A stretch of DNA of 64,000 nt from Nemertoderma westbladi (GCA_032718475.1 JAUCBJ010007821.1:1-64000); one strand, 5' to 3'; shown: positions 1 through 45,724, numbered from the stretch's first letter. Numbers and translations are program-made. Notes: generated by a model not told the origin, from the sequence alone.

Positions 1-1055
1 TTATCATGTAACAGGATTCGTTTTCGTCGGAGAACTCGTCTGTATAGAATCCTTCCATCTCAGATTGATCAGTGTCGTTCACATCACTGAATTGGACATG
101 TAGCTCGGAATCACTTACCTGATTCGGACTATTTCGATCGAATTCAGCGTGCAACAAGATATGATGTTTCGCACCACACTTTGCACACCTTATGTCAGAG
201 AAACAGGTTCGCCATTGGTGTCCTTGTCTGAGGCAATTATAACATAACCGCTTATCCCACATGACTTCGCGTCTCTCCGTTAATGATTTCTTTAGAAATT
301 CATCACACCTATTCAAATGGTGGGTCCCGTCACACAGCGCACATTTCGGTTTGATGTTACTTACCTTATTCTGAGTCACATTGTGTACACTTGCCTTTTC
401 TTCGGGCTTTCTCACCTGAATTCTCTTGGGAGACGTGGGAGGAGTTTTTCTTACCTGTTCTCTTCTGTCATTTGCTCGAGACTTGAATTTACTTACCTGA
501 TCTTTAGGCATTTTATTGACATAATAAGATCTATCAGTGTCTATCCCGCTATCTTCTCCTTGAGAAGTCTGGCTTTCGCCGTCGTCTGTATAACACACTG
601 GTGTTACCTTTCTCCTAGAGACGGGTTTTTCACTTACCTTGTTTTCCGGTGTCTTCTCTCGGGACTGCTTGAGGAGTTGCAATTTCACTTCTCCATCCAA
701 GAATGTCATGAGATCAGCCATGGTAGGGTCTCGTCGTTGTTGTTCCATCATATATAGTACTTTCTTATCCCAGCGTGTGCCTACCCCACCTTTGTAAAGT
801 GTAAAGTAGAAGCCACAGCTCCAATGACCATAGAACTTTGGTATTCATGAGACTTTCCTAACCAATCTAATTGTCTACAGATCTCTTGAATCTCATCGGA
901 AAACTCTATTATCCCACTGCTGATGAACTTTCTGGGCGCTACTAATTTTGCATATAAATACTTAGCGATATTATTCCTATTACCATACCTGATGTTTAGT
1001 GTGTCCCAAACTTGTCTTAATCCGTCTGGATGTCCAATAAACTTTAACGCCATTA
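1..1055 (-). pseudogene. 3' part of gag of an older BEL/Pao retrotransposon (continuation of 23451-25897)
   Basis: Joining across the TSD ACTTG restores ...CLEGSPK-LMALKFIGHPDGL.... There is a frameshift near 800, then RWDKKV..PTMADLMTFL and BEL-type knuckles CYNCLRQGHQWRTC / CAKCGAKHHILLH at about 145-250. Confidence 0.85.
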
Positions 1056-1060
1056 ACTTG

Positions 1061-4000
1061 TGTTACGGTATATGGCGCTGTATCCACAGTATTAGTCCAT
1101 TATGCAGTATGCAGTATTAGTCCATTATGCAGTATGCAATATTAGTCCGTTATACTGTACGTAATATTAGTCCGTTGTGCAGTATAATTATTTAGATAAG
1201 GCACAGTGTGGTGACATTTAGGTAAGGAAGTTAAAACGCCCATATATTTTGCATCCATTCATTTTGTATAGTATGTAGCCCTACCTACGTAATTTTGTAT
1301 TAGGATATATGTAGATAGTTCCAGGGTAGCGAGTTTACTCGGACCCTGGATTTTTGTGCTTGCTGATATTAGTTTGATAGGGCTAGCATATAGGGACGCC
1401 GTCCTGGCCATTCAGCAGCCAGAGACGTGAACCATTACCATATATGGTAATAATTTGAGCAATAGGGCTACAATCCGGCCTCCTTATTGGATTAACTGCT
1501 TCCAGGTTGGTCTAATGCTAGCATGGACTGGAGAGCCAATAGGAGAGCGATTGAGTCACCCTATTGCATCATCCCATATGGATCACCTATAAATTGGCGG
1601 TGTGCCGGTAGAGCCTTACTGTTCAACCTGTTATCGATCGATTCAACCTTCACTGCTGTTGTACTTGCTGAGCTGTCTCTATTCAATTTTGACGGATTTT
1701 AGAGTATTTTTGCAATTTGATTAATTTCTTGAAATGATTTGCTAGTGCGATTACTCTTGCTTGTGTTTCTCAATTAATTCCTTCGATTACTGCTAATTAC
1801 AACTGAACTATGATTTCTACCTTTTGATTAATGGTTCTATGTGATTCTTTTCTGCGCAATAATCCTAAGGGATTTCTGAGACTGTCAGACTTTGTGATTT
1901 GCATGCGCCGCTACGGTAGCTATTAGCATAATGGAGGTCTAAGGCGCCAGTGGGCGGTGGGCACATCGGGGGGTTGAGCGACTAAGGGAGAGCGGAGGAT
2001 TCAAAAGCGGGCAACGCTGGCGGGGGTCAACGTTGCGGTCGGGCAGTTTGGACTGTGGGTTGGAGACCGCTCGCCGGTACAGTAATTAGGGGGCTGATGA
2101 TCCAAGGTTTTGTCTCTATTTAGTATTAGGGGGCAGGAATTGGGTTAGTTAGGAAGCCTAGATGTACCCGGGAGGGGCCTGCATACCTTACAGTGGTAAT
2201 GGTGAAAAATATCGAGACTTGAAAAATATCGAGAGTAAAAATAACGAGAGTAAAAATATCGAGAGTAAAAATAACGAGTGTTGAAAATTAACGTGATTAA
2301 AAAATATCGAGAGTAAAAATAACGCGAGATGAAAAATATCGAAAATAACGAGTGTTGAAAAATATCGAGTGTTGAAAAATATCGAGAGTAAAAATATCGA
2401 GTGTTGAAAAATATCGAGAGTAAAAATATCGAGTGTTGAAAAATATCGAGAGTAAAAATATCGAGTGTTGAAAAATATCGAGAGTAAAAATATCGAGTGT
2501 TGAAAAATATCGAGAGTAAAAATATCGAGTGTTGAAAAATATCGAGAGTAAAAATATCGAGTGTTGAAAAATATCGAGTGTTGAAAAATATCGAGAGTAA
2601 AAATATTGCATTTTGCTTGAGCATTTTATTTAGAATTATGGAACAATATTGCAGTGCATGGGTTACAACAGTGCAAGTGCTAGTGAATGGCATTATGTAA
2701 TACACCTTGGGTACCCATTTACCAGATTTATTATACTAGCTAGTTTTTGCTATTTTTTTAATAAATATGATAAATGAAGTGCTAGCTATAAATTTTGATA
2801 AATATTATAAATATTGTTAAATATTATATTAGAACACGTATAAGCTACCAAATATTTATAAATATTGTTGTTCTAGAACATTTTTAGTAAAAAAAATTAT
2901 CATACAACCCTTATTTAAAAAAATTGTTACTATCGATATTTTTACTCTCGATATTTTTCAACATTCTATATTTTTTTCAACACTCGACATTTTTACTCTC
3001 GATATTTTTCAACATTCTATATTTTTTTCAACACTCGAAATTTTTACTCTCGATATTTTTCAACACTCGATATTTTTCAACACTCGATATTTTTCAACAC
3101 TCGATATTATTCAACACTCGATATTTTTACTCTCGATATTTTTCAACACTCGATATTTTTACTCTCGATATTTTTCAACACTCGATATTTTTACTCTCGA
3201 TATTTTTCAACACTCGATATTTTTACTCTCGATATTTTTCAACACTCGATATTTTTACTCTCGATATTTTTCAACACTCGATATTTTTACTCTCGATATT
3301 TTTCAACACTCGATATTTTTACTCTCGATATTTTTCAACACTCGATATTTTTACTCTCGATATTTTTCAACACTCGATATTTTTACTCTCGATATTTTTA
3401 CTCTCGATATTTTTCAACACTCGGTATTTTTACTCTCGATATTTTTACCCTCGATATTTTTACTCTCGATATTTTTTGAACTCTCGATATTATCGTTATT
3501 TTTCAACACTCGATGTTTTTACTCGCGTTATTTTTACTCTCGATATTTTTCATGTCTCGATATTTTTCAATATAACCCTTACAGTAAGTAAGTAAGTAAG
3601 TAAGTAAGTTGCGAAGTAAGTAGATTGCGAATTAGTCAATTGCGAATTATTATGTTGCGAATTATATAATTGCAGATTGTATAATTGCAAGTCGTGCTAT
3701 TGTGATCTGTGATTGCTGACGCTGATTGGTGTGTTACTGAAGTGTGCCTATGATTACGAATGCTTAGGTAGGCGCCCCCTTTCCTTTTGATTGATTTCTA
3801 TCTCTTAGTTTACTGTAAATAATTACTGATTAGGTCAAAGTAATACAGTATTTTAGGCTGTTACATATTTGTGACTGTAATTAATTAGTAAAATTAAGAA
3901 TTAGTACGCAGCATAGCAGAGAGTAGCTAAGGTAATAATTAGAGTACCGTAAACTATTCACGTTGAGCGGTTATTTGAATTAGCGGGCAATAAACTAGAT

Positions 4001-4633
4001 CGCAATAGTTAGTACGCAAGACACTAGTAAGTTGCTGGCCTAAAGCCAGCTGCAGGCAAGTTTAGACCCAGAGCGGTATCACCCACGAAAGACATTGTAC
4101 TGTACCAATTTTGATTTATTTTAAACATTCTCGCATTCACACATTTCGTTAGGGAACCCTCCGTATTCGCGATTAGAAAAGACGTAGGCATTAGCGTACT
4201 TCAACAGTAGTAAAATTAGGCGTAAGAATATACTCTGAGTGCAAAGCCCCTCGCACTCGTCTTAAGTAAGCTTAGGGAGCCGACTCGGGTTTATTGTTTT
4301 GGTTATTCCCGCGTGGCTCATAGATTCGAACAGTTAGCTCTCTATCGAGCGATCGGTAGAGAAAGGAACAAGCGATTTTGCAGGAGCTGTGTAAATTTAG
4401 TAAAATATATTAGCGGACGGCAGATTAGCGCCATCCAACGGTAAGTAGCGGTTTTGTATTTAGCAACCCTTACAATTTAGTAATAGCACGCTCCTGATCC
4501 CCTTTACTTAACAGTAGAGCAGTCTTTGTGTCTTATTGGTTAGGCGAGAGCTCATTAGGTTGGCAGAGAGGTATACGGGTATTTGTCTGTTCAACAGTTC
4601 TGCTGTTAGTATAGGTGTCGCGGTTGTTTAACA
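1061..4633 (+). repeat. 5' LTR of element 1 (2182 bp plus 1391-bp insertion)
   Basis: Matches 21264-23445 once 2195-3585 is removed. TATAAA at 1588, ~25-bp tandem repeats at 1088-1185, (GTAA)n at 3584-3608. Confidence 0.95.
2195..3577. mobile_element. Non-autonomous foldback-type DNA transposon (Merlin- or Mutator-like termini)
   Basis: Absent from the 3' LTR. TSD CTTACAGT (2187-2194, 3578-3585; 9 bp if CCTTACAGT). GG...CC ends with imperfect TIR GGTAATGGTGAAAAATATCGAGAC / GGTTATATTGAAAAATATCGAGAC. Arms are inverted arrays of 15+17-bp units around an AT-rich spacer. Confidence 0.9.
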
Positions 4634-5808
4634 GTAAGGTATGTGTTATTGTCTGCTGTAGGCCTACCGCGTACAGTAGGACATAGAGTATATTCTTAGG
4701 CCGTGAAGATTTAGATTTACTGATACTTCGTAACAGTAAGGTACGGTATGTTTTATTGGCTGTTGCTTGCAGCAGTCAATAGTGTATTCTTAGGTTGTTA
4801 GTTTATATTACTGTATTCACTGGCTGCGTACACTAGTACAGTAGTACATTAGGCTGATTGCTGTTACTGCGTACGGTAGAAGGACATTTGTTTGCCGTAC
4901 CACACACAGTATCATTAGGCTGTTAGGTTGGTGTACTGTTTTACTTACTGTACTGCATACAGTGGATGTACGGTAGTGCGTTTTGCTAATTGCGAATACA
5001 GCAGTTCCTTAGGCCTTAGGGCAAACAGTAATTAGTAAGTTTTTTGAAAATTTTAGCTAGGTTTGCGAGAATTCAGTTTTCGGTCAAAATTATTTGTAAA
5101 ATTCTAGAGTTTTGTACCGGCATGACCGGTATGTTAGGTAACCGTTTAGTTATTTTATACCATCTGGAGATACATGGCAAGACGGAACTTCTGAGTTTGG
5201 GGTTCGTGTGGGTCTGCGGGTTCGGTTTGCAATCAGCGAAGGGACTGAATCTTTGGACGCGGACGTGGAATCTCACAGCAAACAAGGTTAGTTGTTCTGT
5301 TGGCACCACTGTGTTTGTGGAAGCAGTAAAAAATTACCGGTTGTTTAACTGCGAAGCTGAACTCAATTTATTAGTTCTGTAGTTAGGATATTTAGGTTTA
5401 GCCGGCCATGGTTTTTGAATCGCTCAAGTTAGAGAGAGAGTTAGAGAGAGTCGCAACCCGAAGATGTAGCCACGCGCTAGTGGATACATATAATATTTGA
5501 AATTAAAATTACGTTGATTATTTTTTTTATTAGAGCTATATATAAAATTAGAAATATTCGGGTGGCAAGTTTATTTTGAATATTTTGTATTAGATTCAAG
5601 GTTATTTTGTGCTATACCGGTATTTAATATTATATAGTAGCTATATAATAATATTTTGTTTAAATATTGTGCTAGTATTTGCTATAACTATATACCCCAT
5701 TAAATTCACAATATTGCATTGCGAATTTATTTGACATTTTGGACCAACTGATTATTTGACAATTAATTTGACCGTATTTCGGTTAAATTATAATTATATC
5801 TCGAACTT

Positions 5809-8800
5809 TTGCGAGATTTTTGCCGGAAGGCAAACATTATTAAGACTATGAGTGTCTCAGACAAAGAGGCACTAGAGGACAGCTATGAGACGGCGGCTGG
5901 ACCGCCGACTGACGATAGCGTAAATATTACTGTTGACGACAATGCCGACTATGACGACGCAGCGAGCGACGCTGACGTAAGTGAACAGGAGGACGAGACA
6001 GTGACTAGTGAGGAAGAAGAACTACCTCAGGTAATAGTATTAGGATCCCCTACCACTACTGTAAGGAAGGACCGCACAGCAGCCCGGACAGAGGTGAGTG
6101 ATAGGGAGGGTAGTGTAGCAGAAGCGAGAGCCCGGAGCCCGGTTTCCAGACCTGTGGGTATGGTAAGTGCCGTGGTCCCAACGGCTGTTAGGAGTACCCG
6201 TAGTTCCCGAAATAATCCTTCAAGTCCACCGAGTGTGAGTCAGGTAAGCGAGAGAGAACTTGATATCGCGATAAAGAAGAAACTTCGCGCGCACGCCGGA
6301 CATATAACTCGGACGACGGACAAGGTAAGGAAGATGTTAGCCGACTCAGCGAACATCGGACGGGAAGGGTTAGTAGAGATTAGAAGAGGATATAACTCAG
6401 CGTTATTCAAGCAGACGGAGGAGCTTGCAGTCCTAGCGAAGAAGGCAGTAGAGTCTCAGTCGAGCGACGTGGCGACGAGGATTTACGACAGGGTTTTAGC
6501 AGCCTTGTTGGAGCACCGCGAGTTATCGGAGCGATTCCGACGAGTTAGGACGGAGAACTGGCTGCTATGGGCATCACAAACGCAGGCGACTCAGGTGAGT
6601 GACGCAGATTTAAGAGACTTAGTGGAGCGGGAAGAGATCCAAGATAAGGAAGAGCGCCGTTATCAGAGGGAAGTTACTAGCTGGCTGATGCAGAATGGAG
6701 TGGTGGTACCAGGCCAGGTGCTACCGACGACGGAGAACATTCAACAGAGGACGTTAACTCCACCCGACGATGCATCCAGAGACAGCGGCGATTCCCAGGT
6801 TAGTCACGCGCGAGGGAAAGTTATATGTGCTAGATCCCTTGTTTCTCACAACTCGGCGGAGGAGAGAAGACGCCGACTAGACGAACAGCAGGCGGAAGTT
6901 TTGCGTGCATCGGAAGCACGGAAGGAAGCTGAGCGGGAACGGGAGCGCGCACGTAAGTTAGACGCAAAGTTGCGGGAGTTGGAAGACAAAGGTAAGCGTG
7001 AGCAAGCGGAACGCGAACGAAAAGAACGCGAACTCCAACTGAAACGCGAACAGAAAGAACGCGAACTCCAACTTGAACGCGAACGGGAAGCGAAGAAACG
7101 CGAACTCCAACTCGAACGCGAACAGGAAGCGAAGAAACGCGAACTCCAACTCGAACGCGAACAGGAAGCGAAGAAACGCGAACTCCAACTCGAACGCGAA
7201 CAGAAAGAACGCGAAATCGAACTTGAACGCGAACGCAAGGAACGCGAACTCGAGATCGAGAAGGAGCGACAGATGTTGTATGAAGAAAAGGCGCGACTGG
7301 AAGAAGAGAGCGTAGCGAGACGAGCGAGGGAAGAAGAAGAACGTAAACTGGCGCAGTTGGAAAGTGCGAGATTAAGTTTAGAGAGCGAAGAACGGACTAG
7401 GAAGGCGAACGAAATCGCCGAGAAGGGGATGCGAATGATCGAAGAATGTGGGGCGAGTGTAGGGACAGAGTTGCGAGAACTGTTCGCACTGCAGAAGGCC
7501 AAACAGGAAGCGAGAACTCCGGCTATACGCGAGTCGACGACGACCAGAATTCCTATACCCGGTCCAGCTATTACGAGTACACGGATCGCTAAACCGTTCT
7601 CTACATATCGCACGCCAGTTGGTATTAGTGCTTCACCTATCGCGCAGGATCTACGTCATCGGAACACCGCACCACTATACACCGAACGAGAGAATGAAGA
7701 GTTTAGAGAAACTCCGACGGGACGAGTACTTGGCGAACCGAACCCGCGGGTTTGGAATACGCGGACGGAGCGCCGACCCAGTTCGACGGAGAACTTCCGG
7801 GTTAAACCGGAAGAGGGATCATATGAGAGACAGCGGATTACTCAGATAGAGCCGACTATACAACAGAACCCTAGCCAGGAATTTATTACGAGGGATGAGT
7901 TAAGTGCTAGTTTAGCGCAAGCTATATCGCCGCACATCCAACCTATAACGGACATGCTTAGCAACCTACGGTTAAAGGAAGCAGCCCAGGTAAGAAGTAA
8001 TTCTAATCCCAGCAGGCCTGAGTTAGATAAAGTCCAGCCTAGTCAACGAGTACGTATATCGGAGGAAACTATACCACATAGACCTCAGGTAAGGACGCCT
8101 GTCCCGAATATCCATAATCCCAATTTCGAAAATTCGGCAGAGAAATTTATTGAGGATGCTTGGATCAGGGCCTCGGCGCGCAAACCATCGCGAGCGCTAA
8201 GGACTGACACCGAGTCAAGCGATGAAGAGGAAGAAATGAGACGTCAGAAGTCCCGAAACTATAAGGAAAGAAGGACCGACGCGGAGCAGGTAAGTTGCAA
8301 CCACCGGGAAAGGACCAGACTTAACAACCCTGCGGAACTAAACCATTTGTTAACCCGGAACGACGCAACCCTTAGGGACATAGGTAAGTTTGCTGCTAGG
8401 CAAGGACTGCCGACGCAACAACCCCAGAAGTTTATGGGCAACCATAAGCATTGGAGGACCTTCAAAACCTATGTCGACGAGCAGCTAACCAACAGCACCT
8501 TTACTCCCAACGAGAAGTTCAACTATTTGCTTCAGATGCTCCATCGAGAACCTAGAGCCATTGCTGATAACTTCGTCGGCAATGAAAGGGCATTTGAGTT
8601 AGCGATGAAGACGCTTAGTGACATCTACGGGAATAAAACCAAGATGGCGCAGTCGATAGTAGAAGACTTGGGTAAGGGCGGAAGGATTACAACTCCGTTA
8701 GAGCTGTTGAACTTAGCGAACGCTATTTCGAACGCATTGGACATCTTGAGGACGGTGAATCTACCTCATCATGGTGATCACGCCGAGGTTTTGAAAAGCG

Positions 8801-11800
8801 TAATAAGACGTTTAAACATGCGTTATCGACAGAAATGGCGCAAATTAGAGAATAAGTTGGAGGGCCAAGGTAAAGTATTGACACTTCAGCATATTCATGA
8901 CATGATAGCCACAGACGCAGTAGCAGAGATGAAATCAAACTTCTCAGAAGAGAATATGAGGGAGTCTAAACCTGTTACCGGTAAGTCTATGGTAAGTTTT
9001 GACGATGACAGGACCACTGTGACATTTAACTCAGTAGACAGATATAATTCGAGTACCCCAGCCTTTAGATCAGACTCGCGAGTATGGTCAGGTGAGCGGT
9101 TAGATAGACCTAGGTTAAAGCAACAGGAGTTGCCGGATGGATTTGTAGGTTGCCAATACTGTTTACTAAAGGAGGTAAGATCTGACGACCATAAGTTAGA
9201 TAGTTGCAGACGGTTCAAAGAATTAAATTCGGAACAGAGAAGAGTTCAAGTGCGGACGTTGGACACCTGTTGGGCATGTCTTGCGCCAGGTCATGTACGG
9301 CGGCAGTGCCCGAACAGCAAGGACGGATGCATGGAATGCGGCAGACTACATCACAAGTTGCTACATGCGGATTTCCACACCCCAACGGACCGTTACTTAC
9401 AGCGAAATCCTCACAGGAAGGGGAGCAAAGAACCCGTATCGATAAGGAGGAATACGTACACTGGCATCCAGGACGATGGTTACCAACCAGGTTCGTCGGA
9501 CGAGGATGGCGAGTCGAGCGCAAGAGAAGTGACCTGCCAAGGTTTCACCGCGGATAGTTCATCGACCAGCGCACGGACGTATTTATCATCGGCCACGTCG
9601 GAAATATTTAGCGTGATTCCGGTGAAACTCACTGGAGATAAGGGATCGAAACGAATATATGTGATGTTGGACACTGCGTCCACATTATCGTATATCGACG
9701 AGGAAGTGGCGAGAGCCGTTTCTAGCTTCCAGGACGCCGAGGAGATCCAAATAGAGTTGAAGTCTATGCACGGGGTAGGAGACCTCAAGGGACACAGAAT
9801 TTCGGTAGAACTAGATTCCCTACTTCCGAGAGACCAACACACTCGACAAGAACGGAAAGCTTTGCCATTGGACGGATTTAAGTGTCTAGCTATGAAGGGA
9901 TTCGGCAGGCAGTTAGGTAAGGTGCCGCCGATGAGTCCCATAGCACAGGAGTATTTTGACAAGCTCAGGATACCCAGACACCAGGTAGGTTATAGGAATG
10001 TTTCTATGTTGATTGGTGCAGAACAGCTGATCGCACACCAGATATGGGAAACGAGACCAGCTGAGCCGCATGTCAATGGACCACATGCCCATAGGACCAT
10101 ATTAGGTTGGTATACACGAGTACCCATGTCTTATGAGTTTACAGGTGGCGACAAGCCAATAAACAGATACGACGAATTACAGCCTATAACTCAACCACCG
10201 TTAGTAGAACCACCAGACATAGACGAGTTTAGGAGAACCTGTATTGACCACTATAGTGACTTTAGCGAGTCGGACGAGGAGTTGATTCCCGATAATGTTA
10301 GGTTGTCGGAACCACTTCACAACGACCGGACAGATAGTGAACCCGAGGACTACTGTTATCAGACCCGTGGGTCTGGTTCAGCGGCCCACGCTACTTATCT
10401 GACTAACGTTTTGACTTATACAGACATAGTGGAGGGTCAAGTGGCTAAATATCGAGACCTAGACATTTTCCAATACAGTGAGGAGGAATTACAGAAGGAA
10501 TTGATACGCCAGGACCTCGAGACAGGAGCCAGAACCGTCGAATGGCTGGATAGGGACGCAATGGAACCCGGTGGATATGACCTAGCCATGTCTACTGATG
10601 AGAAACGGTCGCTGGAGATGATGGAAGACACCATACGTCTGCTACCGACTGGACATTTTGAAGTTGGAATGTTGTGGCGTCGACAACCACCTAAGTTGGA
10701 GAACAACTACAACTTAGCCTTGAAAAGATTGAACGGAGTAAGGGCTCGGTTGTTGAAGAATCCAGGCATTAGGGAGAAGTATTGCGCCCAGATCAACAAC
10801 TATTTCGCCAAGGGATTTGCTGGGAAGGTAGAGGACCCTGACTTAGTGACAGACCAGACTTATTACCTTCCACACCACTATGTGACTCACCCTGACAAGC
10901 CAGACAAAGTCCGAGTAGTCAACGACTGCGCAGCAGTCTATAGAGGTATGTCCCTGAATTCAGAGTTGATGGATGGTCCCAACCTGAACAACTATTTGAT
11001 TGGAATACTGTTGCGTTTTAGACAGCGGCGATTCGCATTTACTTGTGACATCGAGGCGATGTTCCACCAGGTAAGAGCCTGTAAGGCAGACCAGGATAGC
11101 CTTCGCTTTCTCTGGTACGAGAATGAAGACTTATCCGGCCCAGTGGTTACATACCAAATGTACGTTAGGATATTTGGCGCCCGCGATAGTCCGAATGGCA
11201 CGCTGTTCGTTTTAAAGAAAACGGCAACAGCCCAGATTGGTAAGTATCCAGTAGAAGTAATCGAGTCCATCTTGAGAAACTTCTATATGGACGACGGATT
11301 GGTGTCCAAGGACACAGCGGAACAAGCCATAGAAGTGGCTCACGGCCTGCAGGAGTGCTTGGCTACAGGGGGTTTTCCTCTGACCAAGTTCACTACGAAT
11401 TCGGAGGCCCTATTAGAATCGTTCCCGGTGAAAGATCGCGGGAGCGGAGACATTGAATTGGGGGTAGAACCAATCCCCATGGCGCGAGTACTGGGACTCG
11501 CTTGGAACCCGAACTCAGACAAGTTCCAGGTAAGAGTTAGATTTGAGCCCAGTAGCCCAGACAAAGTTTTGACAAAGAGGATTTGCTTATCGACTTTAAG
11601 TAGACTATTTGACCCGATGAACTTTATCAGTCCGGTTATATTACAGGCACGAGCGTGCATGAGGAAAATTTGGTTGTCCGACGTAGAGTGGGACGAACCA
11701 ATATCTCCTATACATGCAAAGCAGTGGAGGGAGTGGGAAGCCGAGTTGCATCTATTGAAAAATATAGATGTACCCCGTTCCTACTTTCCGAATCAGCTGG

Positions 11801-14259
11801 TATTTCCAACTGATTTAGAGCTGCACCTGTTCAGTGACGCAAGTGACACCGGCTTTGGTATGGTAGCCTACCTTCGCCGAGAGGTAAGTCAGGACAAATT
11901 TGAGACGGCCTTTGTGACTTCTAGATCAAAGACAATGCCGGTCAAATACATGACTGTCCCTCGTGCAGAGTTACAGGCGGCTGTAGTTTCAGTCGAGGTA
12001 AGTAAGCAGATAATTGAGGAGTTAGACACGACATTGACCTTATTCTATTGGACGGACGCATCCTTGGTGTTAGTATACATTGCGGCCGACAATATTGCAC
12101 TAAAGACATTTGTGGCCAATAGACGCGCTCAGATCGTTGATTTTTCGACGAAGGAACAATGGAGACATTGTCCGGGAGTGTTGAACCCGGCCGACATAAC
12201 TTCGAGAGGTGCAATGCCGGCGGAATTCTGTCAGGAAGAGTCGCAGGAGTTTTGGTTGCATGGACCTGATTTTCTAACGAGGACACAGGAACATTGGCCA
12301 GAGCGACTAAAGATAGTGACCAATCCGATGCCTGAAGATGCGGAAGTCAAAGTGGAGAAAGTCTCTAAGTCGAAGTCTAAAGCCAAACTTAAGTCATTGG
12401 AGCGGCCTGAAGAGTCATTGGAGCGGCCTGAAGAGTCATTGGAGCGGCCCGGAGACCTGTCAGACCAACAGACTTACGTGACTACTGGGTCAGGAAGGGT
12501 AAGTTACGACGTAAAACCACCCTTACAGACTAAACCGGAGTCACAATTGGTAAGTGACGGACAGAAAATGACCGACACAATGGAGTCTTTGGTTTCCAAA
12601 CCTGCGGGTTTGGATTCGAAACTTCCATTAGTTAGCGGACAACCGTCGCTGGCATTAGAGCCATGTAGTATTTATGACAAATTACTAAATTCGTCTGCCT
12701 CTTGGCTGACAATTTGTAAAAGAACTGCGTGGTTAAGCCGATACATTTTGTACCTTTGTTTAAAACATTCGAAACATTCGAGAGAACCATTGAGCACCAA
12801 TAGTGAGCGAATTCGGAAATTGAAACAACCTCTGACAGAGGATGAGATTGATCAAGCGGAATTAAAGCATTTGAAGCATTATCAAATGTGTGCCTTCCCT
12901 AAAGAATTCCATCTATTATCGGCTCAACGACCAGTTCTCTATAAACCCCTTAGAAAATGGAGTCCATTAATCCATAAGGGTTTAATTTGTCATAGATCGA
13001 GAATCCAGACTGTCGACATAAACTCACAGTTTCGGTTCCCAGTGATAATCCCTAGTCACCCAATAGAATTGCAAAGAGCGATTCTATGGGATATACACAA
13101 GAGGTTGCATCACGCGGGAAAGTTACACTGTCTGTCGGCAGCGAGACAGCGATTCATTCTATTGCAGCCAAGCAGGGCAGTAGGCACCATGTACGACGCC
13201 TGTCTGGTTTGCAAGAGGGTGAACGCCAGAGTATTGGAACAGGATATGGCTGAACTCCCGGAAGCGAGAGTGCAGGCATATGACCCACCCTTTACGAACA
13301 CAGGGGTGGACTGTTTTGGTCCGATTGAAGCAAAGAGTGGACGGCTGACCCACAAGCGATGGGGTCTGCTACTGACATGTATGGCTAGTAGAGCCATACA
13401 CATTGAGCGTGTGGCAGACATGTCGACCAAATCTCTGCTCCTGGCCTTAAAGAGATTTATGGCCAGGAGAGGACTAGTAAAGGCGTTCTACTCTGATAAG
13501 GGTACAAACTTTGTCGGAGGGAATAGCGAGTTGAACGCGGCTCATAAAGCGGCACAGAATAAGGAAATTTCTGCAGCACTTTTGCCGCAACGAGTAGAAT
13601 GGAGATTCAATACTCCTGAAAGTCCTTGGAGAGGAGGAAGTTGGGAGCGTTTGGTTCGCTCTGTGAAGCAGGCCATTGCCAAAACATTGCCTGTGAACAA
13701 ACAACTTACCGACGACGAACTGGTCACAGCTTTCATTGAAATCGAGCATACCCTAAACTCGAGGCCGATAGCTATGTTGCCAGACGGTGTTGCATTAACG
13801 CCGAATCATTTGCTAATGCAGAGTCCAGCATTTCTTGTGCCGGCATCAGAACCCATTAGTGCCGACCTATATAGTCGTAAAAGCTGGAAAGTGACTCAAT
13901 TAGTAGCGTACACATTCTGGGAATATTGGCGGGAATACTATCTTCCCACCATATCCACCAGAACAAAGTGGTACAAAACGGTTCGGAGTCTCCAAAGGGG
14001 AGATTACGTGTTGATAACCGAACCCATTGTCAAGAGAAAGTATTGGGAGACTGGAGTGATCTTGCACACACACCCAGACGTGCAAAACATAGTGCGCACA
14101 GTCACTGTGAAAATTAGGTGCAAGTGTCCGCACCCAAAAAAGTGTAAAACTAATGGTTTACACACCTTGGACCGACCAGTCCAAGATATCGTGTTATTAG
14201 AGGAGACACGTATCGAGACGGGAGATTATAATTTGTCTCCTGCCTCAAAACAGAATTAG
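5809..14259 (+). CDS. BEL/Pao gag-pol polyprotein (first ATG at 5848)
   Basis: 2816 aa. Coiled-coil repeats, three Cys-His knuckles ending CMECGRLHHKLLH, protease MLDTAS, RT FTCDIE..FYMDD, RNase H FSDAS..PRAEL..YWTDA, integrase HHCC + GVDCFGP..SDKGTNF..GGSWE. Confidence 0.97.
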   Translation: MRDFCRKANIIKTMSVSDKEALEDSYETAAGPPTDDSVNITVDDNADYDDAASDADVSEQEDETVTSEEEELPQVIVLGSPTTTVRKDRTAARTEVSDREGSVAEARARSPVSRPVGMVSAVVPTAVRSTRSSRNNPSSPPSVSQVSERELDIAIKKKLRAHAGHITRTTDKVRKMLADSANIGREGLVEIRRGYNSALFKQTEELAVLAKKAVESQSSDVATRIYDRVLAALLEHRELSERFRRVRTENWLLWASQTQATQVSDADLRDLVEREEIQDKEERRYQREVTSWLMQNGVVVPGQVLPTTENIQQRTLTPPDDASRDSGDSQVSHARGKVICARSLVSHNSAEERRRRLDEQQAEVLRASEARKEAERERERARKLDAKLRELEDKGKREQAERERKERELQLKREQKERELQLEREREAKKRELQLEREQEAKKRELQLEREQEAKKRELQLEREQKEREIELERERKERELEIEKERQMLYEEKARLEEESVARRAREEEERKLAQLESARLSLESEERTRKANEIAEKGMRMIEECGASVGTELRELFALQKAKQEARTPAIRESTTTRIPIPGPAITSTRIAKPFSTYRTPVGISASPIAQDLRHRNTAPLYTERENEEFRETPTGRVLGEPNPRVWNTRTERRPSSTENFRVKPEEGSYERQRITQIEPTIQQNPSQEFITRDELSASLAQAISPHIQPITDMLSNLRLKEAAQVRSNSNPSRPELDKVQPSQRVRISEETIPHRPQVRTPVPNIHNPNFENSAEKFIEDAWIRASARKPSRALRTDTESSDEEEEMRRQKSRNYKERRTDAEQVSCNHRERTRLNNPAELNHLLTRNDATLRDIGKFAARQGLPTQQPQKFMGNHKHWRTFKTYVDEQLTNSTFTPNEKFNYLLQMLHREPRAIADNFVGNERAFELAMKTLSDIYGNKTKMAQSIVEDLGKGGRITTPLELLNLANAISNALDILRTVNLPHHGDHAEVLKSVIRRLNMRYRQKWRKLENKLEGQGKVLTLQHIHDMIATDAVAEMKSNFSEENMRESKPVTGKSMVSFDDDRTTVTFNSVDRYNSSTPAFRSDSRVWSGERLDRPRLKQQELPDGFVGCQYCLLKEVRSDDHKLDSCRRFKELNSEQRRVQVRTLDTCWACLAPGHVRRQCPNSKDGCMECGRLHHKLLHADFHTPTDRYLQRNPHRKGSKEPVSIRRNTYTGIQDDGYQPGSSDEDGESSAREVTCQGFTADSSSTSARTYLSSATSEIFSVIPVKLTGDKGSKRIYVMLDTASTLSYIDEEVARAVSSFQDAEEIQIELKSMHGVGDLKGHRISVELDSLLPRDQHTRQERKALPLDGFKCLAMKGFGRQLGKVPPMSPIAQEYFDKLRIPRHQVGYRNVSMLIGAEQLIAHQIWETRPAEPHVNGPHAHRTILGWYTRVPMSYEFTGGDKPINRYDELQPITQPPLVEPPDIDEFRRTCIDHYSDFSESDEELIPDNVRLSEPLHNDRTDSEPEDYCYQTRGSGSAAHATYLTNVLTYTDIVEGQVAKYRDLDIFQYSEEELQKELIRQDLETGARTVEWLDRDAMEPGGYDLAMSTDEKRSLEMMEDTIRLLPTGHFEVGMLWRRQPPKLENNYNLALKRLNGVRARLLKNPGIREKYCAQINNYFAKGFAGKVEDPDLVTDQTYYLPHHYVTHPDKPDKVRVVNDCAAVYRGMSLNSELMDGPNLNNYLIGILLRFRQRRFAFTCDIEAMFHQVRACKADQDSLRFLWYENEDLSGPVVTYQMYVRIFGARDSPNGTLFVLKKTATAQIGKYPVEVIESILRNFYMDDGLVSKDTAEQAIEVAHGLQECLATGGFPLTKFTTNSEALLESFPVKDRGSGDIELGVEPIPMARVLGLAWNPNSDKFQVRVRFEPSSPDKVLTKRICLSTLSRLFDPMNFISPVILQARACMRKIWLSDVEWDEPISPIHAKQWREWEAELHLLKNIDVPRSYFPNQLVFPTDLELHLFSDASDTGFGMVAYLRREVSQDKFETAFVTSRSKTMPVKYMTVPRAELQAAVVSVEVSKQIIEELDTTLTLFYWTDASLVLVYIAADNIALKTFVANRRAQIVDFSTKEQWRHCPGVLNPADITSRGAMPAEFCQEESQEFWLHGPDFLTRTQEHWPERLKIVTNPMPEDAEVKVEKVSKSKSKAKLKSLERPEESLERPEESLERPGDLSDQQTYVTTGSGRVSYDVKPPLQTKPESQLVSDGQKMTDTMESLVSKPAGLDSKLPLVSGQPSLALEPCSIYDKLLNSSASWLTICKRTAWLSRYILYLCLKHSKHSREPLSTNSERIRKLKQPLTEDEIDQAELKHLKHYQMCAFPKEFHLLSAQRPVLYKPLRKWSPLIHKGLICHRSRIQTVDINSQFRFPVIIPSHPIELQRAILWDIHKRLHHAGKLHCLSAARQRFILLQPSRAVGTMYDACLVCKRVNARVLEQDMAELPEARVQAYDPPFTNTGVDCFGPIEAKSGRLTHKRWGLLLTCMASRAIHIERVADMSTKSLLLALKRFMARRGLVKAFYSDKGTNFVGGNSELNAAHKAAQNKEISAALLPQRVEWRFNTPESPWRGGSWERLVRSVKQAIAKTLPVNKQLTDDELVTAFIEIEHTLNSRPIAMLPDGVALTPNHLLMQSPAFLVPASEPISADLYSRKSWKVTQLVAYTFWEYWREYYLPTISTRTKWYKTVRSLQRGDYVLITEPIVKRKYWETGVILHTHPDVQNIVRTVTVKIRCKCPHPKKCKTNGLHTLDRPVQDIVLLEETRIETGDYNLSPASKQN

Positions 14260-15049
14260 TGTTGGACGCAACTCACTTCGTATGCATTCCTCGTATGCAA
14301 ATACAAGGAAATGCATAGGAGCGGGGTTGTGGTGATTTGCGTTGAGTTTTGTCTGGTGGGTATCAAAACAGATTGTTTTGTCTGGTGGGTATCAAAACAA
14401 AATTTTATTTTCAAAATTTTTGGAAAATTAGAAAATTTTAAAAATTAGAAGTGAACCCAAGACAATTCCAGACGCTGTGTATAGACGCGTTTTAGAATTC
14501 GTCTATAGATAAACAGTAATTTGAAAAGTCGTGAAGCCTGGAAAATAGCATTTAGAAACCATGGTGACGGCTATATTACGTAGGAGTGTAAATTGAGTTT
14601 AGCAACTTCCACAGATTGGTGCCAACAGTGCAACTAAGGTGCTAAAGGTTAGTAGCACCAGAGGCGTACATGGACCCCACTCAGTAGTTTGCAGTGATGT
14701 GTGATGTTCGATTATCAAACCTGTGGGTTTGGTATAGTCGAGTATTGTGGCTATAGTCCTTTCTAACTACTGTAGTTTAGTACGAGTAATGGGAGTAGTT
14801 TGGGCATCAAAAAGTGAGTTGGTCACGGCCAGTTTATCTCCAAAGTTTTTGCGCTATGCATGGGAATAGGTTAGAGGATAGTTAGTTAGGAAGAGACGGG
14901 ATCTAGAGAGTCGAACCTGAACTGCTGGAAGGCAGCGGGGGGGGTTCGGGAGGTCTGTCCTTCGGCGACATCTAACTGATTACCCACAGTGTAATTGGTT
15001 TGCGTAACGGAACACTTATTGGGATATATATGTATATACGCGGGGCATA

Positions 15050-15710
15050 ATGGAGAAGGATATTAGAGCGCAACCGCGCAGAGGATTTACTGCCAGAGAG
15101 GAGGCGGAGTTACCATTCGCGCGACCGGGATGTAAAGATTCGAACGTTTACTACCATGGGCGGTCGGTGATGGAGCTAAATGGGAAATACAAACCCACGA
15201 TTCCCGACCGACTAGACGAGCAACATCCAGAACCGATATTAACGCGATGTCCAGCTCACCAGTTCCTTAGATACAACGAGGGAGGTTACCCGATGAGCGA
15301 CCCGATGATCAGTATCGACTTCAGCGAAAGCGACCTCCGAGACCCATTACGCCGACCGTTACGACTTTAGATCCGTATACAGAGATTAAACCTGTTCGAC
15401 ACCCAGTTTGATAGACACGGCGGCGGCCATTTCGCTATACCGAGCCTATAAAGACCTAGAGGCGCGGCGCGAAGCGGCACGGGACTCGAGTTCCTGGACC
15501 ACGTTCACTTCGCTTCACCAGGAAAGGAAGGTCACGCCTGAGTATCCAGACGAGATTCGCGCCGTCCATCCGTCTACTAACTATACCCACGATCCGCGGT
15601 TTATACGATATTTACTCCAAATTATTTCGGGAAGTTTCGAGGCACGCACTATTAAGCCCGAATATGTCCAATCCTTTATATATCATCGTCGCTCTGATAT
15701 ATACGTCTAG
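15050..15710 (+). other. Short accessory ORFs downstream of pol (106 aa and 100 aa), function unknown
   Basis: GC-richer, coding-like block 3' of pol with no recognised domain; duplicated at 19357-20017. Confidence 0.4.
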
Positions 15711-15920
15711 ATTTATTACCCAGCGCACAATTGGCGGCCTAAGGAGACTCGTTTGGGGTCATTGACCTCTGAACGAGTGGAGGATCAGGACCGCCGCGCC
15801 CACAGCGACAACAGCCGGAGCTCACAGCTCGCGGCAAGTACCAGAAGGAGGAGTCCTTGGCAAGCGTCAAGCTAAGGACGAGCACTCGACTTATCGACTT
15901 TAAGTAGACTATTTGACCCG

Positions 15921-18563
15921 ATGAACTTTATCAGTCCGGTTATATTACAGGCACGAGCGTGCATGAGGAAAATTTGGTTGTCCGACGTAGAGTGGGACGA
16001 ACCAATATCTCCTATACATGCAAAGCAGTGGAGGGAGTGGGAAGCCGAGTTGCATCTATTGAAAAATATAGATGTACCCCGTTCCTACTTTCCGAATCAG
16101 CTGGTATTTCCAACTGATTTAGAGCTGCACCTGTTCAGTGACGCAAGTGACACCGGCTTTGGTATGGTAGCCTACCTTCGCCGAGAGGTAAGTCAGGACA
16201 AATTTGAGACGGCCTTTGTGACTTCTAGATCAAAGACAATGCCGGTCAAATACATGACTGTCCCTCGTGCAGAGTTACAGGCGGCTGTAGTTTCAGTCGA
16301 GGTAAGTAAGCAGATAATTGAGGAGTTAGACACGACATTGACCTTATTCTATTGGACGGACGCATCCTTGGTGTTAGTATACATTGCGGCCGACAATATT
16401 GCACTAAAGACATTTGTGGCCAATAGACGCGCTCAGATCGTTGATTTTTCGACGAAGGAACAATGGAGACATTGTCCGGGAGTGTTGAACCCGGCCGACA
16501 TAACTTCGAGAGGTGCAATGCCGGCGGAATTCTGTCAGGAAGAGTCGCAGGAGTTTTGGTTGCATGGACCTGATTTTCTAACGAGGACACAGGAACATTG
16601 GCCAGAGCGACTAAAGATAGTGACCAATCCGATGCCTGAAGATGCGGAAGTCAAAGTGGAGAAAGTCTCTAAGTCGAAGTCTAAAGCCAAACTTAAGTCA
16701 TTGGAGCGGCCTGAAGAGTCATTGGAGCGGCCTGAAGAGTCATTGGAGCGGCCCGGAGACCTGTCAGACCAACAGACTTACGTGACTACTGGGTCAGGAA
16801 GGGTAAGTTACGACGTAAAACCACCCTTACAGACTAAACCGGAGTCACAATTGGTAAGTGACGGACAGAAAATGACCGACACAATGGAGTCTTTGGTTTC
16901 CAAACCTGCGGGTTTGGATTCGAAACTTCCATTAGTTAGCGGACAACCGTCGCTGGCATTAGAGCCATGTAGTATTTATGACAAATTACTAAATTCGTCT
17001 GCCTCTTGGCTGACAATTTGTAAAAGAACTGCGTGGTTAAGCCGATACATTTTGTACCTTTGTTTAAAACATTCGAAACATTCGAGAGAACCATTGAGCA
17101 CCAATAGTGAGCGAATTCGGAAATTGAAACAACCTCTGACAGAGGATGAGATTGATCAAGCGGAATTAAAGCATTTGAAGCATTATCAAATGTGTGCCTT
17201 CCCTAAAGAATTCCATCTATTATCGGCTCAACGACCAGTTCTCTATAAACCCCTTAGAAAATGGAGTCCATTAATCCATAAGGGTTTAATTTGTCATAGA
17301 TCGAGAATCCAGACTGTCGACATAAACTCACAGTTTCGGTTCCCAGTGATAATCCCTAGTCACCCAATAGAATTGCAAAGAGCGATTCTATGGGATATAC
17401 ACAAGAGGTTGCATCACGCGGGAAAGTTACACTGTCTGTCGGCAGCGAGACAGCGATTCATTCTATTGCAGCCAAGCAGGGCAGTAGGCACCATGTACGA
17501 CGCCTGTCTGGTTTGCAAGAGGGTGAACGCCAGAGTATTGGAACAGGATATGGCTGAACTCCCGGAAGCGAGAGTGCAGGCATATGACCCACCCTTTACG
17601 AACACAGGGGTGGACTGTTTTGGTCCGATTGAAGCAAAGAGTGGACGGCTGACCCACAAGCGATGGGGTCTGCTACTGACATGTATGGCTAGTAGAGCCA
17701 TACACATTGAGCGTGTGGCAGACATGTCGACCAAATCTCTGCTCCTGGCCTTAAAGAGATTTATGGCCAGGAGAGGACTAGTAAAGGCGTTCTACTCTGA
17801 TAAGGGTACAAACTTTGTCGGAGGGAATAGCGAGTTGAACGCGGCTCATAAAGCGGCACAGAATAAGGAAATTTCTGCAGCACTTTTGCCGCAACGAGTA
17901 GAATGGAGATTCAATACTCCTGAAAGTCCTTGGAGAGGAGGAAGTTGGGAGCGTTTGGTTCGCTCTGTGAAGCAGGCCATTGCCAAAACATTGCCTGTGA
18001 ACAAACAACTTACCGACGACGAACTGGTCACAGCTTTCATTGAAATCGAGCATACCCTAAACTCGAGGCCGATAGCTATGTTGCCAGACGGTGTTGCATT
18101 AACGCCGAATCATTTGCTAATGCAGAGTCCAGCATTTCTTGTGCCGGCATCAGAACCCATTAGTGCCGACCTATATAGTCGTAAAAGCTGGAAAGTGACT
18201 CAATTAGTAGCGTACACATTCTGGGAATATTGGCGGGAATACTATCTTCCCACCATATCCACCAGAACAAAGTGGTACAAAACGGTTCGGAGTCTCCAAA
18301 GGGGAGATTACGTGTTGATAACCGAACCCATTGTCAAGAGAAAGTATTGGGAGACTGGAGTGATCTTGCACACACACCCAGACGTGCAAAACATAGTGCG
18401 CACAGTCACTGTGAAAATTAGGTGCAAGTGTCCGCACCCAAAGAAGTGTAAAACTAATGGTTTACACACCTTGGACCGACCAGTCCAAGATATCGTGTTA
18501 TTAGAGGAGACACGTATCGAGACGGGAGATTATAATTTGTCTCCTGCCTCAAAACAGAATTAG
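15921..18563 (+). CDS. Duplicated RNase H-integrase half of pol (880 aa)
   Basis: Identical protein to the C-terminal 880 aa of 5809-14259. Confidence 0.8.
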   Translation: MNFISPVILQARACMRKIWLSDVEWDEPISPIHAKQWREWEAELHLLKNIDVPRSYFPNQLVFPTDLELHLFSDASDTGFGMVAYLRREVSQDKFETAFVTSRSKTMPVKYMTVPRAELQAAVVSVEVSKQIIEELDTTLTLFYWTDASLVLVYIAADNIALKTFVANRRAQIVDFSTKEQWRHCPGVLNPADITSRGAMPAEFCQEESQEFWLHGPDFLTRTQEHWPERLKIVTNPMPEDAEVKVEKVSKSKSKAKLKSLERPEESLERPEESLERPGDLSDQQTYVTTGSGRVSYDVKPPLQTKPESQLVSDGQKMTDTMESLVSKPAGLDSKLPLVSGQPSLALEPCSIYDKLLNSSASWLTICKRTAWLSRYILYLCLKHSKHSREPLSTNSERIRKLKQPLTEDEIDQAELKHLKHYQMCAFPKEFHLLSAQRPVLYKPLRKWSPLIHKGLICHRSRIQTVDINSQFRFPVIIPSHPIELQRAILWDIHKRLHHAGKLHCLSAARQRFILLQPSRAVGTMYDACLVCKRVNARVLEQDMAELPEARVQAYDPPFTNTGVDCFGPIEAKSGRLTHKRWGLLLTCMASRAIHIERVADMSTKSLLLALKRFMARRGLVKAFYSDKGTNFVGGNSELNAAHKAAQNKEISAALLPQRVEWRFNTPESPWRGGSWERLVRSVKQAIAKTLPVNKQLTDDELVTAFIEIEHTLNSRPIAMLPDGVALTPNHLLMQSPAFLVPASEPISADLYSRKSWKVTQLVAYTFWEYWREYYLPTISTRTKWYKTVRSLQRGDYVLITEPIVKRKYWETGVILHTHPDVQNIVRTVTVKIRCKCPHPKKCKTNGLHTLDRPVQDIVLLEETRIETGDYNLSPASKQN

Positions 18564-19356
18564 TGTTGGACGCAACTCACTTCGTATGCATTCCTCGTAT
18601 GCAAATACAAGGAAATGCATAGGAGCGGGGTTGTGGTGATTTGCGTTGAGTTTTGTCTGGTGGGTATCAAAACAGATTGTTTTGTCTGGTGGGTATCAAA
18701 ACAAAATTTTATTTTCAAAATTTTTGGAAAATTAGAAAATTTTAAAAATTAGAAGTGAACCCAAGACAATTCCAGACGCTGTGTATAGACGCGTTTTAGA
18801 ATTCGTCTATAGATAAACAGTAATTTGAAAAGTCGTGAAGCCTGGAAAATAGCATTTAGAAACCATGGTGACGGCTATATTACGTAGGAGTGTAAATTGA
18901 GTTTAGCAACTTCCACAGATTGGTGCCAACAGTGCAACTAAGGTGCTAAAGGTTAGTAGCACCAGAGGCGTACATGGACCCCACTCAGTAGTTTGCAGTG
19001 ATGTGTGATGTTCGATTATCAAACCTGTGGGTTTGGTATAGTCGAGTATTGTGGCTATAGTCCTTTCTAACTACTGTAGTTTAGTACGAGTAATGGGAGT
19101 AGTTTGGGCATCAAAAAGTGAGTTGGTCACGGCCAGTTTATCTCCAAAGTTTTTGCGCTATGCATGGGAATAGGTTAGAGGATAGTTAGTTAGGAAGAGA
19201 CGGGATCTAGAGAGTCGAACCTGAACTGCTGGAAGGCAGCGGGGGGGGGGGTTCGGGAGGTCTGTCCTTCGGCGACATCTAACTGATTACCCACAGTGTA
19301 ATTGGTTTGCGTAACGGAACACTTATTGGGATATATATGTATATACGCGGGGCATA

Positions 19357-20436
19357 ATGGAGAAGGATATTAGAGCGCAACCGCGCAGAGGATTTACTGC
19401 CAGAGAGGAGGCGGAGTTACCATTCGCGCGACCGGGATGTAAAGATTCGAACGTTTACTACCATGGGCGGTCGGTGATGGAGCTAAATGGGAAATACAAA
19501 CCCACGATTCCCGACCGACTAGACGAGCAACATCCAGAACCGATATTAACGCGATGTCCAGCTCACCAGTTCCTTAGATACAACGAGGGAGGTTACCCGA
19601 TGAGCGACCCGATGATCAGTATCGACTTCAGCGAAAGCGACCTCCGAGACCCATTACGCCGACCGTTACGACTTTAGATCCGTATACAGAGATTAAACCT
19701 GTTCGACACCCAGTTTGATAGACACGGCGGCGGCCATTTCGCTATACCGAGCCTATAAAGACCTAGAGGCGCGGCGCGAAGCGGCACGGGACTCGAGTTC
19801 CTGGACCACGTTCACTTCGCTTCACCAGGAAAGGAAGGTCACGCCTGAGTATCCAGACGAGATTCGCGCCGTCCATCCGTCTACTAACTATACCCACGAT
19901 CCGCGGTTTATACGATATTTACTCCAAATTATTTCGGGAAGTTTCGACGCACGCACTATTAAGCCCGAATATGTCCAATCCTTTATATATCATCGTCGCT
20001 CTGATATATACGTCTAGATTTATTACCCAGCGCACAATTGGCGGCCTAAGGAGACTCGTTTGGGGTCATTGACCTCTGAACGAGTGGAGGATCAGGACCG
20101 CCGCGCCCACAGCGACAACAGCCGGAGCTCACAGCTCGCGGCAAGTACCAGAAGGAGGAGTCCTTGGCAAGCGTCAAGCTAAGGACGAGCAGTTCCATTC
20201 TATAGTTGAAGAAAGAGGAGTTGGCGGAGGCGCCCACAGGGACACGGCAAATGGGACGAGGCCGAGGGAGGAGCACCAGTCGGGAGATAGTCGGTGCCCA
20301 GGGAACGTCGTCGCCGGTTCCGGGAAGTGACGCCTCAAGGACGCCGTCAACAGAGTCTACAGGGGGTAGACTGGTGTATCTGGGGAGGGGACAAACGAGA
20401 GGAGCGAGCCCGAGAGACCCAGGAGCTAGCCGATGA
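19357..20436 (+). other. Accessory 3' ORF block of element 1 (106, 100 and 76 aa fragments)
   Basis: Successive same-strand short ORFs between pol and the 3' LTR, possibly one decayed or spliced ORF2. Confidence 0.4.
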
Positions 20437-21263
20437 GACTATATTATCACGGAGCGACAAACTCTAGACATATACATCATCGTCGCTCTGATGTATATCG
20501 TAGGTTTTGATCAATCATTCGACTGGACTCATATACACTAGTCGTATCCATATTTTAGAATTTTATTTTCGAAGGCCGAAAAATATTGAAAGGAAATACT
20601 TTTATTTTGTAGTCCGTTGGAAATAGTGATTTTGAGCCTATACTATATTTGATTTTGTGTATATGACTTTATTTGCTCTAAAGTTTATTGAAAGAGGCAA
20701 AGGAAGTGATTGGGGAGACAAACCCGCGGGTTTGGCTTACTCCTTTCACTTACCTGAGCAATCATCAAACCAAGATGATTTGCGTTTTTTATAAGAAATT
20801 AAGTAAAGTCCGAAAATGAAAGAAATTATTACGTATTTTATATTTAATTTGATTATCGGCCTTTAATGCAATTTAGTTAAAAATTTAGCCTCAAATACGT
20901 TTATATTTAGTTTATCTTGTTAATGTTGATCGTTAATTTGAGATGGGAAATGGGGGACATTGTCCTAGCCATGTTCCATTTCAATATGTAGACCGTTAAT
21001 TTGTAAATAAATAAAGGAAGTAATATTTTGTAAATTTAATTTTGTATGTAGTAATCATTATGTAGTAAGAACGAGAAACAATATTTTGTAAATTTAATTT
21101 GTATGTAATTCATTATGCAATATCTATAGCAATATTTGTAAATAGTAGGAATTATAGTATCAAGTATTTAGATTGGTTGGAAGAAATTTATTTTGTTTTG
21201 TATACATCACCTTATACTCTTCTACAATTGGAGGGAAACATTGTATGATTTCCCTTGGAGCGG

Positions 21264-23445: not shown

Positions 23446-23450
23446 ACTTG

Positions 23451-32863: not shown

Positions 32864-32890
32864 CTTCGTGTATTTTCTTCACCTGTTGCT

Positions 32891-39519: not shown

Positions 39520-39733
39520 GTAACTAAACCGAGCTGCCGCCCTAGTTAAACTCTAAGAACTGCAACCTAGCTAGCCGAATCATCAGGCTAGGAGGCCCAG
39601 GCGGACCCCGGGCGAAGATCAAACGATCCGCGAGGCCGCGACCAGGCGGTATAGGCCCACGACGCCGGAGCCATCGGTAACGGGTGACCCGGAAGTCCAA
39701 GAGAAGGGGGACCGTCTGGAATCAGAATCCGAG

Positions 39734-45616: not shown

Positions 45617-45724
45617 AAGTGGAGTTAGAGTGGAGTTTAGTCGTCCAAGTTTTGGACTGAGGGGGGTGGGATTGAGGGCGAGACGCCCTTCCCACACAAA
45701 TAAAAATAAAATAAAAATAAAAAT

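Follow-up and report, generated by a model that had tools for sequence, protein, structure and literature searches.

The 64,000-nucleotide stretch of the Nemertoderma westbladi assembly analysed here (GCA_032718475.1, JAUCBJ010007821.1:1-64000; the window) contains a plus-strand long terminal repeat (LTR) retrotransposon, designated Element 1 (1061-23445), which is flanked by a 5-bp target duplication (ACTTG at 1056-1060 and 23446-23450). Its 5' LTR (1061-4633, +; TGTTA...TAACA) is split by a later insertion, and its 3' LTR (21264-23445, +) is uninterrupted and 2182 bp long. At the position of the primer-binding site (PBS), Element 1 carries the tract GTAAGGTATG (10-mer at 4634-4643, +), which is the exact reverse complement of a site within its own LTR. 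We assign a probability of about 0.7 to the reading that Element 1 self-primes its minus-strand DNA from its own RNA at 2182-2191, without a transfer RNA (tRNA), as judged from sequence and by analogy with the fission yeast element Tf1.

Element 1 and its post-LTR tract

An earlier note on the same DNA had reported that the bases directly past the 5' LTR are not TGG, which was borne out; the LTR boundaries are defined by its second copy and by the target duplication. It had further placed the complement of this tract at 2182-2191 and 22386-22395; the former position and the exactness of the match were confirmed, while the copy in the 3' LTR was found at 22385-22394. In that uninterrupted copy the site is followed, as had been described, by one base (A) and then by a (GTAA)n array of six units (22396-22419, +; 3584-3607 in the 5' LTR), which is absent from relatives. 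Within the window the tract 10-mer is found at a single position and its reverse complement at two, both of them the LTR sites. In addition to the ten Watson-Crick pairs, two G-U pairs lengthen the tract/site helix to 12 (4634-4645 with 2180-2191).

The predicted 3' segment of the self-primer, CATACCTTAC (2182-2191, +), is contiguous and intron-free, and the best spliced match obtained for an intron-split primer in Element 1 was just six bases. The LTR contains a sole TATAAA (1588-1593, +; CCAAT at 1535), from which a start near 1618 is predicted; a bacterial promoter scan gave no result, the method being unsuited to this sequence. The site consequently lies ~565-575 bases past the predicted start, close to the ~560 nt noted earlier as a departure from Tf1, a departure that appears less anomalous now that the sites of relatives are seen to be internal as well. 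In dinucleotide shuffles of the LTR, a 10-base match with no spacer was reached in 4 of 3000 cases, and in 29 of 3000 when spacers of 0-10 were allowed; taken alone, the Element 1 match is suggestive only.

Element 1 encodes a single gag-pol frame of 2821 amino acids (aa) from stop to stop (5794-14259, +), in which Pfam and motif comparisons revealed DUF1759, zinc knuckles, protease, reverse transcriptase (RT), Peptidase_A17 (the ribonuclease H, or RNase H, region), integrase and DUF5641. The frame also includes a YMDD motif and acidic motifs that we take to be those of RT and RNase H, respectively. A young LTR retrotransposon, Element 1 is assigned to BEL/Pao on the basis of DUF1759, Peptidase_A17, Integrase_H2C2 and DUF5641, which Pfam placed in this order.

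Own-LTR complementarity in Element 2 and in relatives

A second BEL/Pao-type element in the window, Element 2 (38982-50733, +), has LTRs at 38982-39519 and 50196-50733 that are 99.8% alike and a target duplication of ACCCA; its gag and protease were matched, with no match for RT or integrase. Its LTRs show no significant DNA similarity to those of Element 1. The post-LTR tract of Element 2, GTAACTAAA (39520-39528, +), is likewise without TGG and is the exact complement of TTTAGTTAC in its LTR (39344-39352, +). The tracts of the two elements differ at four of nine positions, each of which is matched in the element's own LTR. Shuffling reproduced the Element 2 match in 9 of 3000 cases, and a 9-base complement was seen at no other position among the 1078 further ones downstream. 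In predicted folds, the helix formed only when the RNA began at 39320 or beyond, with a mean pair probability of 0.82-0.91.

Relatives were collected by a metagenome scan, which yielded 80 loci in 53 DNA groups. The LTR end is fixed by a second copy in 19 of these groups and was inferred in one further locus (L018), the remaining groups being without LTR DNA. Two of the 19 groups (L035 and L042) begin with TGG after a spacer of 1-2 bases; the other 17 do not. In a strict script, applied to 19 non-TGG families including Elements 1 and 2, at least ten perfect pairs with the family's own LTR were found in 14 of 19 families, compared with 16 of 420 cross-family pairs. A relaxed script, with a looser acceptor filter, G-U pairs permitted and L018 added, matched 18 of 20 non-TGG families to their own LTR at ten or more pairs, compared with 28 of 462 cross-family pairs; here Element 2 scored 9, and the TGG families L035 and L042 scored 4 and 5, i.e. 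no match.

The tRNA-independent self-priming proposed in the earlier note is supported, at the level of sequence, by the recurrence of the pairing with other letters in Element 2 and in 17 of 18 non-TGG relatives, where the own-LTR match extends over 10-15 bases. Complementarity was kept when tested in related families: the 19 families scoring at least 9 possess 18 distinct tracts, 18 of the 19 beginning with GT. The tract starts 0-5 bases past the LTR end, or nine bases past it in L022, whose end is unsure. In a blind test of 28 loci for which the LTR end was not known, four of five valid matches fell at a GT located 0-5 bases past a CA; as to the remainder, 22 loci gave no match, the rows for L075 were edge artefacts and L023 was a misfit. 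In a quick tree, 17 of the 18 self-type relatives fell into one group (support 99), separate from the two TGG relatives (92). Near-identical tracts were observed in L004 (2969-2979), L056 (4135-4145) and L069 (2247-2258) despite their unlike LTRs, that of L069 differing from the other two by one base, which gives a G-U pair.

Among the 17 matching relatives, 14 have their complement interrupted by a GT-AG intron in the LTR, 71-536 bases long; the upstream exon supplies 4-9 bases from its end and the next exon 5-11 from its start. The donor thus lies upstream and the predicted primer end 5-11 bases past the acceptor; in the other three relatives the complement is contiguous, as in Elements 1 and 2. 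In two natural copies the intron is missing with base-exact precision (the 5' copy of L058, and the 3' copy of L077 compared with L078), and the intron in L058 and L077/L078 is therefore spliced, whether the records are DNA or RNA. For the two of 20 relatives with a TATA match, the site lies ~100 and 145 bases into the spliced RNA, counted from the predicted start. The tract of L041 would match 11 bases across an intron (1123-1133 and 973-977), the acceptor of which is CGG in both LTR copies; L041 is possibly a dead copy or a user of a non-canonical acceptor.

A third element in the window, Element 0, is likely to represent the intron-split form, as suggested by its sequence. Its site of 11 bases (28354-28364, -) directly follows CAG, and the candidate tract (27937-27947, -), three bases past ...GTACA, is the exact complement of 28364-28354 and the best of 102 candidate CA+0-5+GT starts. 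A strong candidate donor (28719) lies 355 bases upstream of the site, and its exon end would add five pairs, two of them G-U; an AATAAA is located 27 bases beyond the site. The LTR end of Element 0 was placed with no second copy to fix it, and the case is therefore graded as likely. The intron-split form, a second complementary site in Element 1 (1614-1623) and the two other window elements had been overlooked in the earlier note.

Proposed mechanism and its alternatives

Seen directly were the lack of a tRNA 3'-end site, a complementarity that is specific to each family and aligned with the end of the LTR, base-exact intron loss in some copies, and a poly(A) hexamer past the predicted primer end in most families. 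The best reading of the sequence is that Element 1 represents the intron-less form of a self-priming element. A transcript from near 1618 would carry the site ~570 bases in, and the site would pair with the tract, probably aided by nucleocapsid protein, in cis or inside an RNA dimer. The RNase H of the element's own RT, by analogy with Tf1 the likeliest cutter, would cleave just 3' of the site and leave a primer ending in ...AC-3'OH on a long 5' fragment, from which RT would copy U5 (the unique 5' region) and the rest of R (the repeated region) back to the cut. With a poly(A) signal beyond the cut, a shared R would remain for the first strand transfer, and the portion removed by the cut would be copied anew off the 3' LTR. 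Strand transfer requires this order, in which a poly(A) hexamer lies past the predicted primer end; AATAAA or ATTAAA was found there in 16 of 19 families and was not found in three, and the 3' LTR of Element 1 has a sole AATAAA at 22801.

In the 14 of 17 matching relatives with a split complement, splicing would build the primer through intron removal, whereas Elements 1 and 2 would carry it ready-made. Were the primer copied at every round of plus-strand synthesis, the tract would be rewritten from spliced RNA, which would account for the perfect matches across exon junctions. The LTR intron could survive because whatever lies upstream of the cut would be supplied again by the 3' LTR; splicing in the 3' LTR itself, behind a 6-kb exon, is expected to be inefficient. 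The wider proposal is that tRNA priming was replaced in a broad animal BEL/Pao lineage by a primer from the element's own leader, built in most families by the host spliceosome across an LTR exon junction, with only the cap-proximal spliced copy priming, and with Element 1 as an intron-less member whose fragment exceeds 500 bases. This proposal appears somewhat better than an even bet.

Several observations weigh against self-priming at 2182-2191. Minimum-energy folds of the natural Element 1 leader (2.5-3 kb as folded, insertion included) from five starts never formed the 2182/4634 helix, the tract being taken by a local hairpin (4631-4652) or by the 1614 site, a competing complementary site near the predicted start; the local fold of 4560-4760 was unremarkable (z -1.46). 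Similarly, the Element 2 helix had a probability of <0.01 from three earlier RNA starts. The 10-base LTR complements in the Element 1 leader form eight tracts compared with 2.4 expected (3 of 500 shuffles), and as the leader is rich in such complements, ~1% is the safer chance figure for Element 1 alone. Among the relatives, tracts are A-rich and some cross-family matches represent real sharing, the relaxed filters were chosen after seeing which families the strict script had missed, and L041 still scores just 8 under them. Moreover, the kinship of Element 1 with the intron-split clade is not established, because Element 1 forms a long branch in the quick tree (33-39% identity to all relatives) and its place is unsure. 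Finally, we know of no tested precedent for a primer hundreds of bases long, and how plus-strand synthesis would stop on such a primer is unexplained.

Among other explanations, a host RNA (a tRNA half or fragment, or a small nuclear RNA) could prime, with the LTR/tract helix serving a structural or regulatory role and masking the binding site. This would agree with the description of the BEL/Pao family as tRNA-primed by the international committee for virus taxonomy (ICTV; PMC8742986) and with the possibility of half-tRNA priming without TGG, as given in excerpts of PMC6317226. It is nevertheless unlikely in view of the 18 distinct tracts among 19 families, each in register with its own LTR and all ending at AC, and of the two genuine TGG relatives without an own-LTR match. 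No tRNA gene or Rfam match was found near Element 1 either: a tRNA scan of the 64-kb window returned 0 genes, and Rfam on 1000-5800 gave merely two sub-threshold snoR25 matches, which lie in the insertion arms and are regarded as chance. Chance could likewise have produced the Element 1 match itself, or it could be a by-product of short inverted motifs common to LTR and leader, given that 14 of 1157 leader positions (4634-5790, site included; 1.2%) have a 10-base LTR complement in the stricter positional control, and that the placement of Element 1 among relatives is unsure. However, the match sits in precisely the register seen in relatives and, like theirs, starts with GT and ends with AC; it is repeated in Element 2 and probably in Element 0, and is accompanied by no other binding site. 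Chance or a by-product is the least probable of the explanations considered.

Priming as in Tf1 proper would employ the extreme 5' end of the transcript (to 1619), with 2182-2191 as a secondary site. The second complementary site, CCTTACTGTT (1614-1623, +), lies 26 bases past the TATA and pairs with the junction of LTR end and tract (4630-4639), reaching into U5; its flanked duplex is the stronger one (-28.2 vs -18.8 kcal/mol) and forms in the fold from start 1610. Beyond the LTR end, though, the tract offers only six perfect pairs, a start 25-30 bases past the TATA would leave at most seven bases, and relatives use 10-15 pairs at internal sites, making this arrangement very unlikely; the site may be a competitor or regulator of the main one. 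Slightly less credible again is a primer end made by the first splicing step at a GTAAGT donor past the site. Six overlapping donor-consensus hexamers are present, the first of them one base past the site, and the earlier note had suggested that the (GTAA)n array makes the primer end, but the freed exon would carry an additional 3' A opposite the terminal A of the LTR, unable to pair. This suggestion was also not upheld among the matching relatives, only two of 17 (L073 and L076) having GT(A/G) no more than one base from the end; the other 15 have none, and 13 of 17 have C there. The array may instead play a role in a translation-only mRNA, or pair with 4941-4952.

Self-priming at 2182-2191 would resemble a strategy known from a different superfamily. 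Tf1 and Tf2 of Schizosaccharomyces pombe (Tf1/sushi, Ty3/gypsy) likewise have no tRNA site but, beside the 5' LTR, a tract complementary to their own R along ~11 bases, and an RNase H-cut primer, according to excerpts of PMC7175516 and PMC5341516; in Tf1, pairing with the site involves the first 11 bases, and the RNase H cut falls between bases 11 and 12 (PMC7175516, in excerpt). Element 1 shares with Tf1/sushi a tract complementary to its own transcript, but belongs to another superfamily, with BEL/Pao domains and no chromodomain match in Pfam, and is known from sequence, whereas Tf1 priming was proven experimentally. Self-priming has also been predicted from complementarity in the plant lineages Tcn1 (gypsy) and TAR/Houba/Osr-1 (copia), which points to an origin in at least two superfamilies; these are other superfamilies than that of Element 1, and no intron-split primer is mentioned for Tcn1 or TAR/Houba/Osr-1 in the excerpted text (PMC6317226). 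The half-tRNA elements Osser, Bryco and Bianca likewise have a binding site without TGG, as stated in the same excerpts (PMC6317226). Half-tRNA elements use one tRNA per whole lineage, whereas in Element 1 and its relatives the tract varies by family and tracks the element's own LTR. Half-tRNA priming also occurs in copia and Ty5.

The ICTV profile of Belpaoviridae lists an 18-base site complementary to the tRNA-Arg or tRNA-Gly 3' end, LTR lengths of 0.2-1.2 kb and genome sizes of 4.2-10 kb, treats the tRNA site as a typical trait and not as a basis of family delimitation, and calls BEL/Pao replication poorly understood (PMC8742986). Element 1 resembles this family in the domains it encodes and their order, in its single gag-pol frame, in LTRs of the TG...CA type, in a target duplication of 5 bp and in its animal host, but differs in having no tRNA site, a 2.18-kb LTR and a length of ~16.7 kb minus insertion and duplication; the relatives L035 and L042, by their TGG start, agree with the profile in this trait of a tRNA site. 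On this sequence comparison, Element 1 appears to work like Tf1 self-priming outside Tf1/sushi, and to depart from the BEL/Pao profile in its priming site. The terms PBS, tRNA and primer-binding are absent from PMC3118150, PMC554778 and PMC6238403. Searches of the full-text literature found nothing on BEL/Pao self-priming or a splice-built primer, with subscription journals, Repbase and GyDB outside their coverage. An internally encoded primer is reported to exist in Cer7 of Caenorhabditis elegans. To our knowledge, self-priming is proven only for Tf1-type gypsy elements and predicted for a few plant lineages.

If the proposal is true, BEL/Pao would be a third superfamily with self-priming, its reverse transcription would be newly dependent on host splicing, and such elements would be beyond control by tRNA fragments aimed at the binding site. 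It would account for the survival of an intron in an LTR that passes through RNA, and for the failure of tRNA-based site finders to detect such elements. It also makes a base-exact prediction, namely an RNA end at 2191.

Architecture of Element 1 and other window features

The 5' LTR of Element 1 is 97.8% (1061-2194) and 99.6% (3578-4633) identical to the 3' LTR, nearly all differences lying in the first 350 bases (1061-1400 compared with 21264-21600), a clustering that suggests template switching or gene conversion and not age. The insertion, present in the 5' LTR only (2195-3577), is foldback-like and 1383 bp long, with an 8-bp target duplication, CTTACAGT. It has inverted arms of ~410 bp composed of 15/17-bp units and begins three bases past the predicted primer end, leaving the site intact. 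An internal tandem duplication of 4.3 kb (11586-20191, +; copies 11586-15884 and 15890-20191, 99.9% identical) is either a recent event or an assembly artefact, and a purine tract, GGAGCGG (21257-21263, +), adjoins the 3' LTR.

Within the 5' LTR, 1614-1628 resembles the primer end and the first strong-stop bases joined together (the complement of 4622-4639 with a 3-base gap), and could either be left over from a captured intermediate or form a helix with a regulatory role. The leader contains degenerate ~100-bp repeats (4627-4960), within which 4731-4750 repeats the LTR end and tract with five additional bases. It is also complementary to U5 over 14 bases (4685-4698) and to the GTAA array (4941-4952).

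PF05380 is present in all 120 protein matches listed for Element 1; the closest relatives among these are ~40% identical, and those named are from aquatic animals. A PDB search with the RT region returned 0 matches, and no relative was found among 29 pattern matches in viral contigs. Numerous variant copies of the region 21200-23500, read on either side of 22387-22427, were detected in contigs of four sequencing runs (5187 contigs from X1), and 240 variants were counted. The insertion of Element 1 interrupts the gag frame of Element 0, an older minus-strand BEL/Pao-type element (1-1060 and 23446-25930), the gag frame and DUF1759-like region of which run on across the target duplication.

Element 2, which is non-autonomous, has an additional frame of 850 aa (46933-49485) with no Pfam match. 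Residues 60-330 of this frame resemble Atlas 3'-5' exonuclease clusters (score 0.94; PF01612 in 34% of members), which is a lead only, and zinc knuckles follow the exonuclease-like part. Elsewhere in the window, a LINE-type (long interspersed) element with endonuclease and RT was observed at 32060-35959, and a compact, apparently intronless Stealth/GNPTAB-like frame of 464 aa, 46% identical to the catalytic part of GNPTAB, at 51784-53178. Long tandem arrays are located at 58486-62466 (39-bp units), 36337-37305 (38-bp units) and, within Element 2, 45726-46468 (66-bp units).

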